Assembly (NCBI GenBank): GCA_038063635.1
Contig: JBBTUS010000006.1
Location: 13,500 to 77,499, forward strand
Source: Patescibacteria group bacterium
GTDB taxonomy: Bacteria; Patescibacteriota; Minisyncoccia; Phycocordibacterales; UBA9973
Length of the DNA: 64,000 nt
Direction of reading: 5' to 3'
Part shown: positions 2,574 to 10,690 of the stretch, piece after piece
How the letters are laid out: the number at the start of each line of letters is the position of its first letter
How positions within the stretch are numbered: the first letter of the stretch is position 1
Program-made: the position numbers and the translations under genes
The notes under the pieces: generated by a model
What the model was told of the DNA's origin: nothing
Databases searched by the model: none
The model's input: the letters and a program-made list of their open reading frames with translations, nothing else

Positions 2574-2880
2574 ATTGATTTTTAATTAAGTATAATTTTT
2601 CGACCTTTGTACATCTAATACCAGTATAGCATTTTCTCAACACCCGCAAATAAAGTGCCGGGTGGTTGGGTGGGGTAAATAAGGCGACCGCAGAAGAAAA
2701 CGACGCAGGCCGAATTGAAAATCGCATAGCGGTTTTTTTTAATGAGAAAGCCGTTGCGGAGAAATTTTTGCATAATAAAATTATGGCAGAGGAATATCTA
2801 GACATCTTAAACGAGAGAGGAATATAGGCGTTTATTAGATTATATAAAATAACTTTATTTCTACGACAACTTACAATATA

Positions 2881-2915
2881 AAAAAGCCTTGATATAAATC
2901 AAGGCTTTTTGTTTT
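2881..2915. terminator. bidirectional rho-independent terminator hairpin
   Basis: Stem AAAGCCTTGAT/ATCAAGGCTTT has a 4-nt loop. It is flanked by an A-run on one side and a T-run on the other, so it works on both strands. It lies immediately downstream of the minus-strand gene 2929..3573. Confidence 0.6.
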
Positions 2916-2928
2916 AGAAACTAGATTA

Positions 2929-3573
2929 TTAGCGAGATAACTGCCATCCACCGCTGGGTGTAAAAAAGACAGGACCACCTCCATAACCATTTGGAGCGTT
3001 TTTGATCATTGGATGTGAATAACCATAAGGAATAGATTTTCTTTCCATTGCTTCTTTGTCCATATTTCCACCAAGACAAAACGCTGGTTTTAAAGATGGT
3101 AGAAGAGTTGGCTTATTGTAAACCTCTGAATAAGATGGAATATTTACAGCTAGATTTTTTTTTGGAAGAGAGGATATAAAGTTATTCATTTTATTCCATT
3201 CAGATAACGTTTTCATGGTTTCTTGTAGTTCTTCTTTTTTTCTCTGTTCCTCTCTTTCTTCTATATCTCCTTGAAGCTTTTTAAAAAATTTTACACAATC
3301 AAGAGAATTAAAACCATATTTGTGAGATATAGAAGTATCTTCTGGAATATGCTTTCCAGTCCATCTTCCAGGATTGAATCCTGTAATTCCATCTTGTTTA
3401 AAAATTCCTCTTACCGCATCACGTTCATCTTGGTGGATGATGTCGTGTACAATTTTAGGAATAAGTTCTGTTGGTCCAGCTAATCTGCCAGGATGGTGGT
3501 CTTCTTCCTCATCCATACAATTTTCCATACCTGCAACATGATTCTTGCAGTGTATTGCCCAAAAATTTTTCAT
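2929..3573 (-). CDS. hypothetical protein (214 aa), with a His/Cys-rich N-terminus and a Gly-rich C-terminus
   Basis: The ORF is long and followed by the terminator. I recognise no family. Confidence 0.45.
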   Translation of the reverse strand: MKNFWAIHCKNHVAGMENCMDEEEDHHPGRLAGPTELIPKIVHDIIHQDERDAVRGIFKQDGITGFNPGRWTGKHIPEDTSISHKYGFNSLDCVKFFKKLQGDIEEREEQRKKEELQETMKTLSEWNKMNNFISSLPKKNLAVNIPSYSEVYNKPTLLPSLKPAFCLGGNMDKEAMERKSIPYGYSHPMIKNAPNGYGGGPVFFTPSGGWQLSR

Positions 3574-3821
3574 AATAATTTATTTTTTAAGTTTTCAAAT
3601 TACATATTTTGTATTCATTTTACCATATACTTAAGTTTTGTAAATAGGCGATAAATAGTAACTATTTCTACTGTAATAAAACCATAAATCCGGTAGTAGA
3701 ATTTCAAATTATTGATTAGTTCTTTCCCGTATTTATTTTTTAATGTAGTTTATGGATTATTAATAATAAAGTTTTAAGTTGTTTTTATGAATCAATAAAG
3801 GACAATTTGAAATTTCACTAA

Positions 3822-3995
3822 CCGGATGAATAAACAAAAAATTGTTTTTATAATACTTCGTTTGGTTATGGGTTTTATGTTTCTTTGGGCGTTTTTTGAT
3901 AAACTTTTTGGCTTGGGATTTGCGACAACCCCTAATCCTCTAACCCCTAACCCCCAATCCTCTAATCTCTAATTCGCGCGAATAGGCGAATAGAT
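3822..3995 (+). repeat. left copy of a direct repeat (about 170 bp, internally deleted) flanking the fic cassette; the right copy is 4966..5478
   Basis: Long identical nucleotide runs were seen by eye at both ends (the start of doxX, and the tail ending ...ttcgcgcgaataggcgaatag). Confidence 0.7.
3826..3972 (+). pseudogene. truncated duplicate of the doxX-like gene at 4970..5422 (5' 110 nt fused to the 3' tail region; 48 codons)
   Basis: Nucleotide stretch 3826-3940 is nearly identical to 4970-5084 (MNKQKIVFIILRLVMGFMFLWAFFDK versus MHKQKIVFIILRLVMGFMFLWAFFDK). It is joined to a tail resembling 5408-5478 (ccaatcctctaatctctaattcgcgcgaataggcgaatag). Confidence 0.6.
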
Positions 3996-4123
3996 AAAAT
4001 AAGAAAAATTAAGTAAAAAAATTCAACGACAGTACATATTTGATTTTAATATATAAATATGTTATAATATATAATGTGTAATACATATTTGATTGGTTTT
4101 GTTATACTTAATATAATAATAAA

Positions 4124-4336
4124 ATGTTAAAAAATCTTATAAAAAGAGACAAAAATATGTCTAGATTGGTTGATCTTCAATTAGAAGCAAGTAGGTTGCC
4201 GGATCTTTCTCATATCGAAAAAACTAAATTTGACCATCTTCTGGCTATTGATCAACTTTACTACTCAAGTAAATTAGAAGGATCTCACTTAACAAAAAGT
4301 GGGCTTGAGCAGGCTATACATGGGAAAAATATTTAG
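4124..4336 (+). CDS. Fic N-terminal segment carrying the inhibitory (S/T)xxxE(G/N) motif (SSKLEGSHLT); either a VbhA/FicA-like antitoxin or the frameshifted N-terminus of a class II Fic
   Basis: The motif SKLEG lies upstream of a Fic-motif ORF. It overlaps the next ORF by 38 nt in a different frame. An A5 run at the junction (gggaaaaat) could be a slippage or sequencing site. Confidence 0.5.
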   Translation: MLKNLIKRDKNMSRLVDLQLEASRLPDLSHIEKTKFDHLLAIDQLYYSSKLEGSHLTKSGLEQAIHGKNI

Positions 4337-4967
4337 TAGACCTAGGAACGAAAAAGAGCTGCAGGAGCGCGAAGCTGCTGGACTTTGGAGAGCACAAGCA
4401 CTTGCAAAAAGTATTGGAGAAAGTAAAGAAAAAATAACTCTTTCAGTCATTTTGCGTATACATAAAATTTTTCTAGAAGATGCTAATCCAGAAATTGCTG
4501 GAAAGTTTAGAGTAATAGGTCAAGATATTAAAAAACTTACCTGTATGATACCTCCACCCGGTTTTGTAGTGCAAGAGGAAATGTATAAATTTTGGAGAGA
4601 ACTCGATTCTCGTCTTTCAAAAGTTCCTCCTATGCTAAAAGGAAAGAAAATATCTAAAACGTCCTTAAGAAAAAGAAATGAGAAAGTTATTAATCTCGCT
4701 GCATGGACACAATATCAGATTACTCGTATTCATCCTTTCTGTGAAGGTAACGGTCGCATGGCAAGATTGATGACAAATTTTATTTTATGGCGTTATAAAT
4801 TTTTACCTACAGATATTAAATACGAAGGCGAAAACAAGCAAAAATATTTAAAATCTCTTTGTGAAATAGATTATACTGGTGATTATAGAATGTTAGTTCA
4901 GCTTATTATAAAAGGTATGACAGCATCTTATAAAAGACTTATTAAAAAGCAAAAGGGGAAATTTTAA
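4299..4967 (+). CDS. fic: Fic family protein (AMPylase/toxin core) with the canonical HPFxEGNGRxxR motif
   Basis: IHPFCEGNGRMARL matches the Fic active-site motif HxFx(D/E)GNGRxxR. Confidence 0.8.
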   Translation: MGLSRLYMGKIFSRPRNEKELQEREAAGLWRAQALAKSIGESKEKITLSVILRIHKIFLEDANPEIAGKFRVIGQDIKKLTCMIPPPGFVVQEEMYKFWRELDSRLSKVPPMLKGKKISKTSLRKRNEKVINLAAWTQYQITRIHPFCEGNGRMARLMTNFILWRYKFLPTDIKYEGENKQKYLKSLCEIDYTGDYRMLVQLIIKGMTASYKRLIKKQKGKF

Positions 4968-5478
4968 CCATGCACAAACAAAAAATAGTTTTTATAATAC
5001 TTCGTTTGGTTATGGGCTTTATGTTTCTTTGGGCATTTTTTGATAAAGTTTTTGGCTTAGGATTTGCGACAACTGCAGACAAAGCATGGATTAACGGGGT
5101 ATCGCCAACAGCTGGTTTTCTTTCTTTCGCGACAGAAGGTCCTTTCGTTAATATATTTCACGCCCTCGCCGGTGTTGCTGTTGTTGATTGGCTATTTATG
5201 CTCGGACTTTTGTTTGCAGGACTAACTCTTGTATTTAATAAATTTATAAAATGGGGATGTATTGCCGGATGTTTAATGCTATTTTTTATGTATTTGTCTT
5301 TGCTCTGGCCGGAAAATAATCCAATTATTGATGAACATATCGTTTATATTTTAGTACTTATACTAATCGCTTTTAATAATAAAAATAACATCGAACAAAA
5401 ACCCACCACCCTTAATCTTTAATCTTTAATCCCCAACCCCCAATCCTCTAATCTCTAATTCGCGCGAATAGGCGAATA
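4966..5478 (+). repeat. right (complete) copy of the direct repeat pair bracketing the fic cassette
   Basis: Its start (4971-5084) and tail (5408-5478) match 3822-3995. Confidence 0.7.
4970..5422 (+). CDS. DoxX-family small membrane protein (four TM helices)
   Basis: At 150 aa and hydrophobic, it has a DoxX-like topology. The N-terminus LRLVMGFMFLWAFFDK is typical of DoxX/DoxD-like proteins. Confidence 0.5.
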   Translation: MHKQKIVFIILRLVMGFMFLWAFFDKVFGLGFATTADKAWINGVSPTAGFLSFATEGPFVNIFHALAGVAVVDWLFMLGLLFAGLTLVFNKFIKWGCIAGCLMLFFMYLSLLWPENNPIIDEHIVYILVLILIAFNNKNNIEQKPTTLNL

Positions 5479-5508
5479 GTTATTATCTAAAGTTTAATAT
5501 AATAAAAA

Positions 5509-6237
5509 ATGAAACTCAAAATTTTATCTTGGAATATATGGGCTGGAACTTATTTAGATGGGGTAATAGAATTTTTAAAAAACATTGATGCTGATATTAT
5601 TGCTCTTCAAGAGGTAGTAGAGGATGACAGAAGAAATATAATAGAAATTATTGCAAAAAAATTAGGGTATGAATACGCTCATGCAGTTGATATGAACATG
5701 CCATTAAAATTTCTTCCTGGACAAAAAAGTGACGATAAAAGAACTATAAAATATGGTAATGCAATTTTAAGTAAATATAAAATTACAAATAGCAATATAT
5801 ATGAGTTAAGTAAAGTAAAAGAATTTAGACGATTGATAATAGAAGTTGATATTAAAATTGAAGATAAAACTCTTCATGTTTTTAGCGTTCATTTGAAGCA
5901 TAATCATCAAAAACCATCGGAAATACAAGACTTGGAAGCTGAAAATTTACTAAAACTTTTATCTGAAAAAAATACAATTGTGATGGGAGATTTTAATGCC
6001 TTGCCTGAAGACACTACAATCAAAAAAATGAGTAAGACATTAATAAACACTGAAAAAAATTCAGCTACCCCAACATGGTCAGTTTATAAAGAAGGATGTA
6101 CTGGTTGTCTTGTTGAAGATATTAAATATAAATTAGATTATATATTCACAAGTAAAGATATAAAATCAGATTTTTTTAAGGTTTATGAATCAAAAAGCTC
6201 TGACCATTTGCCCATTTCAGCTGAAATAGAAATATGA
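5509..6237 (+). CDS. endonuclease/exonuclease/phosphatase (EEP) family protein
   Basis: LKILSWNIWAG...DADIIALQEV...GDFN...SDHLPI are the conserved EEP catalytic motifs. Confidence 0.75.
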   Translation: MKLKILSWNIWAGTYLDGVIEFLKNIDADIIALQEVVEDDRRNIIEIIAKKLGYEYAHAVDMNMPLKFLPGQKSDDKRTIKYGNAILSKYKITNSNIYELSKVKEFRRLIIEVDIKIEDKTLHVFSVHLKHNHQKPSEIQDLEAENLLKLLSEKNTIVMGDFNALPEDTTIKKMSKTLINTEKNSATPTWSVYKEGCTGCLVEDIKYKLDYIFTSKDIKSDFFKVYESKSSDHLPISAEIEI

Positions 6238-6262
6238 GTAATAATTTTGCTATAATAAACTT

Positions 6263-6838
6263 ATGGAAAACAAATTAAATTGCATTATTATTCATGGATG
6301 TCCTTCAAGCAAAGAATCAACAATGAATCCGGAAACAAGGACATATGATAAGCATTGGATTCCTTGGATTAAAAAAGAATTATTGCTGAAGGGGATTAAA
6401 ACTGAAACTCCATCAATGCCAAATCCGTGGGAGCCGAATTATGAAGCTTTTAAGAAAGAATTTGGAAAATATCAAGTTTCCGAAAATACCATTTTAATAG
6501 GACATAGTTGCGGATGCGCTTTTTTGGTTCGTTGGCTAGGCGAATTAAAGCAAAAAATTAAAAAGTTGATTTTAGTCGCGCCTTGGAAAATTCCAAGTGA
6601 AAATGATATTTCTAGAGAAAATTTTTATATGTTTCCAATAGATGAAACTATTAATTCTCGCGTAGAAGGGATTGTTATATTTACATCAGATAACGAAAGG
6701 GAAGATGGAAAGAAAAGTGTAGAAATTTACAAAAAAAGCCTTAATAGTAAAATTATAGAACTAAAAGGAAAAGGGCACTATAAATACAGTGATATGGGAA
6801 CTGAAGAATTTCCAGAATTACTAGAGGAGATTAAATAA
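6263..6838 (+). CDS. alpha/beta serine hydrolase (RBBP9/YdeN-like)
   Basis: IIIHGCPSS...LIGHSCGC is the GxSxG nucleophile elbow. Its size matches YdeN-type serine hydrolases. Confidence 0.5.
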   Translation: MENKLNCIIIHGCPSSKESTMNPETRTYDKHWIPWIKKELLLKGIKTETPSMPNPWEPNYEAFKKEFGKYQVSENTILIGHSCGCAFLVRWLGELKQKIKKLILVAPWKIPSENDISRENFYMFPIDETINSRVEGIVIFTSDNEREDGKKSVEIYKKSLNSKIIELKGKGHYKYSDMGTEEFPELLEEIK

Positions 6839-6886
6839 TTTTAGCCTCGCCCGGCTCGCTCGTAGGTCTATGGCCGAGGGAAAAAT

Positions 6887-7774
6887 TTATCTATGAAATG
6901 GCAATTCAATAAAGAAAGTAGTTCCTTTATTTCTGCCTTTTGACTTGGCATATATCTTGCCATGATGTCGAGCAATAATTTGCCTTGAAAGGTTAAGCCT
7001 TATGCCCATACCGTCCGGATGAGATAATACGGCGTTTTTAGCTCGGAAAAATCGTGAAAAGATTCTTATTTTATCATGAAAGCTCAATCCCGGACCATCG
7101 TCTCTAACGCTCAAAATTAGTTTATTCTTATTAAAAATACAATCAATAAAAATTTGACCATTGGCTGGCGTGTAAATAATCGCATTTTCAATAATAGAAT
7201 CTACAACAAAAGAAATTTTTTTTAAATCAGCCGTGAGCATGGGAATATCCTTAAAAGTTGGAACTTGAAATGTCAAACTTTTTTTATTTATTTCCTCCCG
7301 ATATTTTACAATTGATTTTTCAACAATATCGCGCAGGGAAGTGGCTTGAAAAATATAGCCTGTTTTATCGTCTATATTTTTTATTCCTGCAATCAAATCC
7401 ACTATTTCAATCAATCTGCTCGTGGCGTTATTTAAACTTTGTAAATAGGTAAGTCTTTCGTTCTGAGATAAGTCTTTTTCCAATTCTTTTGAAATCCAAT
7501 TTATTCTGGTTAATGGAGTACGAAATGTATGATTTACTATTGTGGTAAATTCATGTTCAATTTGATTTTTATTTGAGTATAATTCTATATAGCTATATCC
7601 TATATATAAAATAATTATAAATACAATAAGAGGAATAAACCAAACGGGCAAATTAAATAACGCGGTAAGATACTCGTGCCGTAACGCAAGATAAAATATT
7701 ACAAATAAAAACAGTATAATGAAAAAGATTTTTACTAATTGCCGGAAGTTTTTCATATCTATATTATAACTCAT
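6887..7774 (-). CDS. sensor histidine kinase (two N-terminal TM helices, HisKA and HATPase_c domains), with no adjacent response regulator
   Basis: The H-box is NHTFRTPLTRI, the G1 is RDDGPGL, and the G2 is GMGIRLNLSRQI. Confidence 0.8.
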   Translation of the reverse strand: MSYNIDMKNFRQLVKIFFIILFLFVIFYLALRHEYLTALFNLPVWFIPLIVFIIILYIGYSYIELYSNKNQIEHEFTTIVNHTFRTPLTRINWISKELEKDLSQNERLTYLQSLNNATSRLIEIVDLIAGIKNIDDKTGYIFQATSLRDIVEKSIVKYREEINKKSLTFQVPTFKDIPMLTADLKKISFVVDSIIENAIIYTPANGQIFIDCIFNKNKLILSVRDDGPGLSFHDKIRIFSRFFRAKNAVLSHPDGMGIRLNLSRQIIARHHGKIYAKSKGRNKGTTFFIELPFHR

Positions 7775-8973: not shown

Positions 8974-10690
8974 AAAACATAAAATAAAAAATGTAAACTC
9001 CTTTGTGGAACCGGATGAGATATTTTTGGATTCGGAAAATTTGGAAAATTTTGACAGCCAGCAGTTTGAAGGACGAATAGAAAAACAAATACATAAAAAA
9101 ACCGTTATTTTTCTTGGTATTTTCTGTGTTTTTTTTATAGGATTATTTTTAATCCAGCTAGGACGCTTGCAAATACAAAAAGGCGAAGCCTATTTAAAAA
9201 GAAGCGAAAATAATACTTTAACAAAACAAGTTATTTTTGCCGATAGAGGAGTAATTTATGATAGAAATAATGTAAAATTAGTTTGGAATGAAAAAGGAAA
9301 AGATATTACTGCTCAAGCTACAACAACAGAAATAGCGAAAGATTTTAAAATGCCGACAAGAGAATACTTATCGCCCGGATTTTCACATATTTTGGGCTAT
9401 GTAAGCTATCCAACGCAAGATAAATCCGGAAAATTTTGGCAAACTGAATTTATTGGAATAAATGGCCTTGAAAAACAATATAATGACAAAATAAAAGGGG
9501 AGAATGGTTCAAAAACAGTGGAAATAGATGCGACGGGAAAAGTTCAATCAGAAAATGTGGTTAATTCTCCAAAACTCGGCGCGGATTTGGTAACTACACT
9601 TGATTCACGCATTCAAAAACAATTATTTTTATTTATAAAAGGATTGGCAGAAAGCCGTTCTTTCGTTGGCGGAGCCGGAGTAATAATGAATGCGCAAAAT
9701 GGAGAAATTTTAACTTCAGTCAGTTTCCCGGAATATAATTCTAAAATTTTATCTTTAGGTAAAGACACGAAAACAATAAAAAATTATTTTTCGGATAAGA
9801 GAAAAGTTTTTATGAATAGGACAATTTCCGGCTTATATACTCCCGGTTCCGTAGTAAAGCCGTTTTTTGCATTAAGCGCTTTAACTGAGGGAATAATAGA
9901 CCCTTCAAAGCAAATTCTTTCAACAGGCTCTATTTCTATTCAAAATCCGTATTTTCCAGACCAAACAACGGTTTTTAAAGACTGGAGAGTAAATGGATGG
10001 ACAGATATGAGAGAAGCTATCGCCGTATCTTCTGACGTGTATTTTTACACTATTGGCGGAGGATATCAGGGACAAAAAGGACTTGGTATCGTAAATCTTG
10101 GAAAATACGCAAGAATGTTTGGCATAGGCGCAGGGTTAACTGGCATTGATTTGTTGGGAGAAAAAGAAGGAACTATTCCAAGTATTGAATGGAAAGAGGA
10201 AAATTTTCCCGGTGACCCTTGGCGTATTGGAAACACTTATCACACATCTATCGGACAATATGGATTTCAAGTTACCTTAATGCAAATGGTTCGCGCTGTT
10301 TCTGCTTTGGCCAATAATGGCAAACTAGTCACTCCGCATTATATACTGGGAGATACTGAAAAAGAAAAACAATTTTCAATAATAGATATTAAAAAAGAAA
10401 ATTTTGATGTGGTGCACGAAGGCATGAGACAAGCTGTCACTTATGGCACAGCTATAGCGCTTGATGTGCCTTATGTAAGTGTCGCCGCTAAAACCGGTAC
10501 GGCACAATTGGGAGTTTTAAAAAATAAAGTTAACTCTTGGGTTATGGGATTTTTCCCGTATGAAAATCCTAAATACACATTTGTCATAATGATGGAATCC
10601 GGGTCTTCTACAAACAGTACGGGAGCATCAAGTGTTATGAGGCAACTATTGGATTGGATGTCTGTAAATACTCCAGAATATTTTAAATAA
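8954..10690 (+). CDS. mrdA: penicillin-binding protein 2 / peptidoglycan D,D-transpeptidase
   Basis: It has an N-terminal TM. SVVKP (SxxK), SSD (SxN) and KTGTA (KTG) are the transpeptidase motifs. Confidence 0.85.
   Translation: MSLKIFKKHKIKNVNSFVEPDEIFLDSENLENFDSQQFEGRIEKQIHKKTVIFLGIFCVFFIGLFLIQLGRLQIQKGEAYLKRSENNTLTKQVIFADRGVIYDRNNVKLVWNEKGKDITAQATTTEIAKDFKMPTREYLSPGFSHILGYVSYPTQDKSGKFWQTEFIGINGLEKQYNDKIKGENGSKTVEIDATGKVQSENVVNSPKLGADLVTTLDSRIQKQLFLFIKGLAESRSFVGGAGVIMNAQNGEILTSVSFPEYNSKILSLGKDTKTIKNYFSDKRKVFMNRTISGLYTPGSVVKPFFALSALTEGIIDPSKQILSTGSISIQNPYFPDQTTVFKDWRVNGWTDMREAIAVSSDVYFYTIGGGYQGQKGLGIVNLGKYARMFGIGAGLTGIDLLGEKEGTIPSIEWKEENFPGDPWRIGNTYHTSIGQYGFQVTLMQMVRAVSALANNGKLVTPHYILGDTEKEKQFSIIDIKKENFDVVHEGMRQAVTYGTAIALDVPYVSVAAKTGTAQLGVLKNKVNSWVMGFFPYENPKYTFVIMMESGSSTNSTGASSVMRQLLDWMSVNTPEYFK

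Follow-up and report, generated by a model that had tools for sequence, protein, structure and literature searches.

A conserved overlapping gene pair, ficA-ficT, with the architecture of a class I Fic module and probable class II ancestry in a Patescibacteria group bacterium

In the 64,000-nt stretch of DNA from a Patescibacteria group bacterium analyzed here (the window; contig JBBTUS010000006.1 of assembly GCA_038063635.1), a short open reading frame (ORF) carrying the motif of the Fic inhibitory helix overlaps, out of frame, an ORF encoding a Fic-domain protein. An earlier note on this DNA proposed two readings. In the first, a frameshift at an A5 run has disrupted a class II Fic gene; in the second, the two ORFs form a class I pair of the FicA/FicT type, whose inhibitory protein is encoded separately. 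The two genes are referred to as ficA and ficT, and the features of the pair and its upstream region are listed below.

4124-4336, plus strand: ficA, 70 amino acids, with the inhibitory-helix motif S48-SKL-E52-G53 (nt 4265-4282)
4320-4967, plus strand: ficT, a 215-amino-acid Fic-domain protein, with the active-site motif H138-PFCEGNGRMA-R149 (nt 4731-4766)
4294-4329, plus strand: interval with two A5 runs (4294-4298 and 4325-4329), the basis of the frameshift idea
4033-4117, plus strand: promoter region of the cassette with two tandem sigma-70-like sites, TTGATT-17 nt-TATAAT, at 4040-4068 (with a TG extension) and 4089-4117

The only match to (S/T)xxxE(G/N) in the 70-amino-acid ORF was SSKLEG at residues 48-53. 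The longest downstream Fic ORF extended from GTG 4299 to 4967, encoding 222 amino acids and overlapping the small ORF by 38 nt, exactly as the earlier note had described; however, the conserved start of ficT was ATG 4320, which gives 215 amino acids and a 17-nt overlap. In the alignment of Fic homologues, the start methionine was near-invariant in the context MxKxFxRP, and since its equivalent in the window is ATG 4320, the real overlap is 17 nt. This ATG is embedded in the His66-Gly67 codons of ficA (CAT GGG). The active-site motif of FicT, HPFCEGNGRMAR at residues 138-149, fits HxFx(D/E)GNGRxxR, and FicT matched the Pfam Fic family (PF02661) with an E value of 2e-15 and 57.7 bits against a cut-off of 24. 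FicA matched no Pfam or NCBIfam family, DNA-binding or otherwise, and the family members were named only 'Fic family protein' and 'hypothetical protein' by NCBI.

The Fic frame was +1 relative to the small ORF, and a frame switch joining the two was possible only within 4293-4333, an interval that contains both A5 runs. The A-run gggaaaaat exists, but it is located at 4322-4330 and not at 4318-4326 as previously given. Removal of one A from 4325-4329 yielded a continuous 280-amino-acid ORF that aligned with class II Fic proteins, and this conceptual fusion was used as the query of the homologue search. The split was inspected in 11 lineages, comprising the window and the loci L081(-L086), L001-L005, L100, L101/L102, L103/L104, and L105/L106; Fic identity across the related lineages was 46-90%, and they belonged mostly to Patescibacteria, with one metagenome-assembled genome (MAG) of Acidobacteriota.

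All 11 lineages had an upstream ORF of 67-82 amino acids with SS(K/R)(L/I/V)EG and a Fic gene in the +1 frame, the ATG of which lay within two adjacent codons of the small ORF reading xAT-Gxx. Both this ATG and the codon that terminates the small ORF were likewise kept in 11 of 11. The overlaps of ficA and ficT were 8, 11, 17, or 26 nt in length, and two of them were 8 nt. No slippery motif was common to the overlaps of the 11 lineages, as exemplified by ATGGCTAA, ATGCCTAA, ATGGCAGCTAG, and ATGGCAAAGAAGCGCTCGCGGCCTAA, and the A5 run at the junction was found only in the window and L081. The constant +1 frame, together with overlap lengths differing by multiples of three, agrees with common descent with in-frame insertions and deletions. 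Inside the overlap, the N-terminus of FicT (MxKxFxRP) was conserved and the C-terminus of FicA was variable.

The fusion query matched 116 Fic homologues, all of which were 155-226 amino acids long and spanned just the Fic three-quarters of the query, and no fused relative was found among these and the 76 small-protein homologues. The inhibitory motif (S/T)xxxE(G/N) was absent from FicT itself and from 113 of the 116 FicT homologues and was present in 74 of the 76 FicA homologues (60-141 amino acids, median 74), while the canonical HxFx(D/E)GNGRxxR motif occurred in 111 of the 116 FicT homologues. The close homologues of FicA numbered 26 and were 62-77 amino acids in length. When 1.84 billion cluster representatives were searched with the FicA profile, 53 matches were obtained, all of 60-141 amino acids apart from a spurious 1006-amino-acid repetitive protein (P0197), and none of them belonged to a Fic enzyme. 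One FicA homologue (P0167) was joined to the N-terminus of GAPDH, which hinted at insertion into genes, but it came from a 624-nt contig labelled cov_0 and was dismissed.

The window was 100% identical across the region to contigs from several assemblies and sequencing runs of the same groundwater site. A contig from another sequencing run, 99.5% identical to the window, also had the left doxX relic described below. A 93-kb ENA contig of the same population had a 100-N scaffold gap (L094 7267-7366) at the place where the window has 736 nt (6236-6971). Compared with L081, a 90%-related cassette, ficA had 22 synonymous and 9 non-synonymous codon differences and ficT had 45 and 21, respectively, and both genes are, judging from these comparisons, under purifying selection. 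Because the split is conserved, both genes are under selection, and independent assemblies are identical, a recent frameshift, a pseudogene, and a sequencing error can be excluded for practical purposes. The proposal of a class II gene broken at the A5 run is accordingly not supported, as the split was conserved in 11 of 11 lineages, mostly without the A-run, and the assemblies were base-identical. The class I FicA/FicT-like pair with a separate inhibitory protein was supported for its architecture and its conservation in 11 of 11 lineages.

The relationship of FicT to the known Fic proteins was examined with profile searches and a structural model. The FicT profile matched FICD, BT_2513 (3CUC), SoFic, and VbhT with E values of 1e-19, 2.5e-14, 3e-7, and 8e-3, respectively. 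The conceptual fusion aligned with FICD over residues 44-264, through the junction, with one 1-residue gap near the junction, and with a 463-amino-acid bacterial class II homologue over residues 12-279. The sole PDB match of the FicA profile was the N-terminal inhibitory helix of the class II protein CdFic, at the motif level (E = 0.1). In an AlphaFold2 (AF2) model built from an alignment of the fusion and FicT-only rows, the FicT core had a predicted local distance difference test (pLDDT) value above 90. Foldseek with this model returned FICD at the top, followed by FIC-1, with a probability of 1.00 to FICD, FIC-1, and BT_2513; the highest template modelling (TM) score was that of BT_2513 (0.73), and the class I protein Bep1/BiaA appeared at rank 40. 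The model indicates that FicT has the all-helical Fic fold. In PADLOC, FicT matched the single-gene Fic defence candidates PDC-S04 and SoFic with E values of 1e-17 to 4e-17 against profiles that have no curated cut-offs, and FicA and FicT mapped to positions 21-51 and 158-222, respectively, of one PDC-S04 single-gene profile. The best NCBIfam match of FicT was a mobile mystery protein B-type family (E = 1.7e-9, 37.8 bits against a cut-off of 124.4), and the NCBIfam VbhT model scored 16 bits against a cut-off of 800.

PMC3667792 and PMC5033356 restate the class definition of Engel et al. 2012, under which the inhibitory helix of a class I module comes from a small protein encoded immediately upstream. 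FicT has no inhibitory motif, and a small (S/T)xxxE(G/N) protein is encoded immediately upstream of it; since this agrees with the published architectural definition, the locus is, by its gene layout, a class I Fic module with the inhibitor in trans. In class II proteins, a single polypeptide carries both the Fic core and, ahead of helix alpha-1, the inhibitory helix. This is not the arrangement here, and yet the homology to class II remained the strongest. Neither the close homology nor the DPY lock that characterizes the canonical FicT clade (VbhT/EcFicT/YeFicT) was found in FicT. By descent, the pair is probably a class-II-type gene (FICD/BT_2513/SoFic-like) that was split in the ancestor of the whole family. 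The class II idea of the earlier note therefore retains its value for the ancestry, as the pair is colinear with FICD and looks like the product of an ancient fission, and not for a lesion or an error.

Several characterized modules share parts of this organization. VbhA/VbhT of Bartonella schoenbuchensis, EcFicA(YhfG)/EcFicT, and Fic-1/AntF are also inhibitor-first operons in which the (S/T)xxxE(G/N) helix is supplied in trans to a Fic protein of about 200 amino acids bearing the canonical HxFx(D/E)GNGRxxR motif. However, the Fic core of ficAT is much nearer to class II enzymes than to VbhT, to which its similarity is marginal (E = 8e-3), FicT has no DPY lock as in the canonical class I modules, and the N-terminus of FicA is longer than that of class I antitoxins and aligns colinearly with the N-terminal part of class II proteins. 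The class II enzymes, namely human FICD/HYPE, Caenorhabditis elegans FIC-1, Bacteroides BT_2513, Shewanella SoFic, and Clostridioides difficile CdFic, were the best matches in sequence and fold. They have the same order and spacing as ficAT, consisting of the inhibitory helix, a linker of about 30 residues, and the Fic core, and HSNKIEGSTFT of CdFic resembles the motif region of FicA. In contrast to them, ficAT has its helix and core on separate polypeptides, with the stop codon and the frame change conserved, and has no tetratricopeptide repeat or other accessory domains. The anti-phage candidates SoFic/PDC-S04 of PADLOC-DB, to which FicT and FicA had profile matches, are single-gene systems, whereas ficAT is split. 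Mobile mystery proteins A and B (TIGR02612/TIGR02613) likewise form a two-gene mobile pair in which B is a Fic protein, although the score of FicT was far below the cut-off. Mobile mystery protein A is described in NCBIfam as a helix-turn-helix protein and not as a carrier of an inhibitory helix.

On these grounds, we consider it likely that the locus is an intact two-gene operon, ficA-ficT, which is class I by architecture, class-II-derived, and equipped with an inhibitor in trans. FicT would be a Fic-fold enzyme with a canonical AMP-transferase motif and without an inhibitory helix of its own, and the conserved helix of FicA, (L/I)YYSSK(L/I/V)EG(S/T)xLT, would donate the inhibitory glutamate E52 in trans. 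In solved Fic structures, the inhibitory glutamate forms a salt bridge with the second arginine (R2) of the active-site motif and ATP is held in a non-productive pose (PMC3667792, PMC5033356). By analogy, E52 of FicA would pair with R149 of FicT, the second arginine of its motif, and hold ATP non-productively; FicT is predicted to be inactive while FicA is bound, and free FicT would be an active AMP-transferase. The ORF structure, conservation, purifying selection, homology, and fold were observed directly in this analysis; binding of FicA to FicT, inhibition, AMPylation, and toxicity are predicted. Because the ficT ATG lies within the CAT-GGG codons of ficA and 17 nt are common to both genes, the translation of FicA and FicT is probably coupled, and transcription probably starts from one or both of the tandem promoter-like sites at 4040-4117. 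By the simplest account of its origin, a class-II-type gene probably underwent fission long ago, at the linker joining the inhibitory helix to the helix that follows, after which selection would have maintained the pair. The module behaves like a small accessory cassette found in differing genomic neighbourhoods; in the window, ficAT and the intact doxX-like gene lie between two copies of a short repeat, beside the relic of a second doxX allele.

Some observations weigh against this interpretation. The inhibitory-helix segment had a pLDDT of about 50 in the AF2 fusion model, the alignment of which covered FicT only. FicT has no N-terminal DPY lock, which is a feature of canonical class I toxins (PMC5033356), and no DPY motif was present anywhere in its sequence; because FicT is also only marginally similar to VbhT, the toxin-antitoxin behavior of the VbhT clade cannot simply be transferred to it. 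No DNA-binding domain was detected in FicA with Pfam and NCBIfam, and autoregulation in the style of type II toxin-antitoxin systems is therefore unsupported. Finally, the Fic motif of the nearest relative, P0002 of L081, contains one glycine more (HPFCEGNGGRMAR compared with HPFCEGNGRMAR in FicT). P0002 (L081 5001-5648) is 90% identical to FicT and was found on 12 contigs, and its extra-glycine motif may alter or abolish catalysis. An altered active site may possibly be tolerated in at least this one lineage.

Upstream of ficA, an exact 13-nt direct repeat, TACATATTTGATT, was found at 4033-4045 and 4082-4094, and each copy includes the TTGATT -35 hexamer of a promoter-like site. The repeat reported in the earlier note is thus exact and real, with starts at 4033 and 4082 rather than 4034 and 4083. 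Promoter-like matches were not enriched in this AT-rich stretch, with 12 found and 9.5 expected. The homology of the L081 cassette began at about 4015-4030 and included the tandem promoter layout in a degenerate form, and the 13-mers were partly conserved in this nearest cassette; no comparable repeat was found upstream of the more distant family members. Tandem promoters would be the economical reading of the repeat region. The suggestion that the repeat may be an autoregulatory operator gained no support, as the 13-mers contain the -35 boxes of the tandem promoter-like sites and are absent upstream of the distant members.

The cassette is flanked by repeats related to a doxX-like gene, the features of which are as follows.

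3817-3929, plus strand: truncated left doxX-like copy, with the upstream TAACCGG and the first 35 codons; it starts a 48-amino-acid ORF (3826-3972)
3930-3993, plus strand: left tail copy, with a C-rich heptad-like stretch and the 33-nt element TCTAATCTCTAATTCGCGCGAATAGGCGAATAG (3961-3993)
4970-5422, plus strand: intact doxX-like gene, encoding a small membrane protein of 150 amino acids and starting 2 nt after the ficT stop
5420-5479, plus strand: right tail copy, including the 33-nt dispersed element (5447-5479), flagged as terminator-like

The segment 3826-3929 was 93% identical to 4970-5073, and BLAST extended the match to 4965-5073, including TAACC and the fic stop codon. The tail at 3933-3993 was likewise 93% identical to that at 5420-5479, with 45 nt exact (3949-3993 and 5435-5479). 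For the 25-nt core of the tail, 0.00 chance occurrences were expected and 2 were found, these being the only two tail elements in the window. The direct repeats of the doxX 5' end and the 3' tail flanking the cassette, which the earlier note had pointed out, are therefore real, at 93% identity each. The left doxX fragment differed from the intact gene in 7 codons, 5 of them synonymously (binomial P = 0.013 under neutral decay), and this synonymous excess argues that the left copy was a functional allele or paralogue while it diverged and lost its middle only later. The homology of the L081 cassette stopped just before the fic stop codon, and the last residues of FicT in the window differed from those of its relatives. 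The TAA stop of ficT (4965-4967) lies in TAACC, which also precedes the left doxX copy. Since the L081 homology ends there and the stop is within the repeated TAACC, a recombination junction is placed at the extreme 3' end of ficT.

The 150-amino-acid protein matched Pfam DoxX (PF07681) with an E value of 0.07 and 14.2 bits against a cut-off of 23.6, and its homologues scored 11-13 bits, so that the label 'DoxX-like' is tentative. Homologues of this gene elsewhere, with 65-70% identity, were present in a single copy, without fic and without the tail, and shared no neighbours with the window. Neither a metagenome scan with DoxX nor exact look-ups of three genes (DoxX, Exo_endo_phos downstream, and the 214-amino-acid gene upstream) yielded a fic-less version of the locus; all that the look-ups returned was the same population with the same structure. 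Short-read contigs of the same population broke inside the 45-nt exact repeat. Duplication or recombination at doxX, as proposed in the earlier note, may have been the route by which the cassette was acquired.

The tail element of about 33 nt, TCTAATCTCTAATTCGCGCGAATAGGCGAATAG, contains a perfect palindrome, ATTCGCGCGAAT. Its core was not specific to doxX, recurring after two unrelated small genes in L081/L083; the sites of the element were L081 5998-6035 and 6345-6382 and L083 1284-1300 and 1631-1647. The hairpin of the tail element was weak (z about -2), and no Rfam match was obtained for the repeat elements. TCTAATCTCTAATTCGCGCGAATAGGCGAATAG could be a lineage-specific terminator, a REP (repetitive extragenic palindromic)-like element, or a recombination site. 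In L101, ficAT was bracketed by 67-nt direct repeats (4598-4664 and 5670-5736), and in L103 by a 70-nt element with 5 copies in 3 kb (2821-5579). These repeats were lineage-specific, and copies also followed small genes nearby, among them toxin genes of the ParE and PemK types. In both lineages, the locus looks like a series of small cassettes with repeats between them. Inspection of the tail and the L101/L103 repeats by eye revealed no convincing R''/R' consensus of the integron attC type.

Close relatives of the pair were found in 5 of 185,579 GTDB species representatives. The neighbours of family members included ParE and PemK toxin-antitoxin genes, a serine recombinase with a SIR2 protein, an N6/N4 methyltransferase with ImmA/IrrE, and a MazG/SLFN-helicase-S24 protein. 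Collections of phages and plasmids contained only distant Fic genes. The family has the layout of type II toxin-antitoxin systems, with the inhibitor first, an overlap of 8-26 nt, and a patchy or mobile distribution. Because of the patchy distribution and the toxin-antitoxin, defence, and mobile neighbours, the reading as an accessory module is favored. One family member (L003 3778-4654) was located on a 2.09-Mb contig of an Acidobacteriota MAG, with a GC content of 59% at the locus. This occurrence suggests transfer of ficAT beyond Patescibacteria. In L100, a sub-threshold match to the S-adenosylmethionine (SAM) riboswitch (10217-10322; 39.8 bits against a gathering score of 44.4) was observed upstream of a SAM synthetase gene.

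Upstream of the cassette in the window, a GC-rich islet (1558-2800; 45-51% GC compared with 33% for the window) was found directly after tRNA-Gln (1558-1630), and a matrixin-type Peptidase_M10 gene lies inside it on the minus strand (1749-2573). The islet was probably acquired horizontally, and this part of the window may be a variable region, the fic cassette lying 1.5 kb beyond the islet. A 214-amino-acid ORF on the minus strand (2929-3573) adjoins the cassette and had no match in Pfam, NCBIfam, or PADLOC.

Other explanations of the pair differ in how the two products would act or come about. The idea that a class II gene was freshly inactivated by a 1-nt insertion in the A-run, or that the extra A arose through faulty assembly or sequencing, draws on the continuous, class-II-alignable ORF of 280 amino acids obtained by deleting one A; it is hardly credible, since several assemblies are identical, lineages with as little as about 46% identity show the same split without the A-run, the searches turned up no fused relative, and both ORFs are under purifying selection. 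Programmed +1 frameshifting in the overlap could instead generate a full-length class-II-type Fic protein, besides or in place of the separate products. The +1 position of the Fic frame in 11 of 11 lineages, an A5 run in the window where tRNA-Lys could slip by +1, and the colinearity of the conceptual fusion with FICD would fit this mechanism, but the overlaps share no slippery site and two of them are only 8 nt, the Fic ATG, needless for a fusion, is nearly invariant, and the constant frame is explained by common descent with in-frame insertions and deletions. We regard such frameshifting as very unlikely. A less remote alternative is that ficAT encodes an obligate two-subunit enzyme, in which FicA would stay bound to FicT in a heterodimer resembling single-chain FICD/SoFic and acting as a switchable AMPylase/deAMPylase, with E52 serving deAMPylation. 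The FICD/SoFic-like core of FicT and the equal conservation and constant co-occurrence of ficA and ficT are consistent with this, and deAMPylase activity is reported for FICD (PMC6826200) and for the Fic-1-AntF complex (PMC13327609). Nevertheless, the family is patchy, has a close relative in so few of the GTDB species representatives (5 of 185,579), and occupies neighbourhoods unrelated to one another, where toxin-antitoxin, defence, or mobile genes are often adjacent, a pattern typical of accessory modules and not of housekeeping functions; we consider the two-subunit enzyme unlikely, if still conceivable.

A further alternative concerns the doxX arrangement only and holds that a mobile cassette of about 1.1-1.5 kb inserts or recombines at short repeats, so that the flanks would be attC- or REP-like sites and not relics of a doxX duplication. 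The tail core after two unrelated small genes in L081, the lineage-specific direct repeats bracketing ficAT in L101 and L103, and a serine recombinase 0.9 kb from ficA in L105 point in this direction. Against it, the tail element occurs just twice in the 64-kb window, no recombinase adjoins the cassette there, and 104 nt of the left copy are clearly doxX coding sequence; moreover, the elements differ among lineages, have no Rfam match, and fold weakly, and those of L101 end in ordinary terminator hairpins. This explanation of the flanks appears doubtful.

The finding of an intact ficA-ficT operon is solid and would not surprise a specialist. It corrects a tempting mis-annotation, in that an out-of-frame overlap at a homopolymer beside a recognizable domain proved to be a conserved gene pair and not a broken gene. 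It also adds an uncharacterized family, mainly from Patescibacteria (candidate phyla radiation, CPR), to a known kind, the Fic modules with an inhibitory helix in trans; a search of a paper library combining the Fic domain, Patescibacteria, and toxin-antitoxin returned no paper. The family indicates that class I architecture can probably arise by fission of a class-II-type (FICD/SoFic-like) gene, and the Fic classes would therefore be architectural and not phylogenetic. More speculatively, and with low probability in our estimation, the family might represent single-gene Fic anti-phage systems of the SoFic/PDC-S04 type in split form. Placing the inhibitory helix on a small protein that is translated separately and possibly labile would convert a switch within one molecule into a toxin-antitoxin or abortive-infection trigger, and the module would spread as a cassette of about 1-1.5 kb with lineage-specific repeats among Patescibacteria and occasionally to other phyla. 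If ficAT is indeed a toxin-antitoxin or defence module, it would be among the few such systems described in reduced, episymbiotic bacteria.

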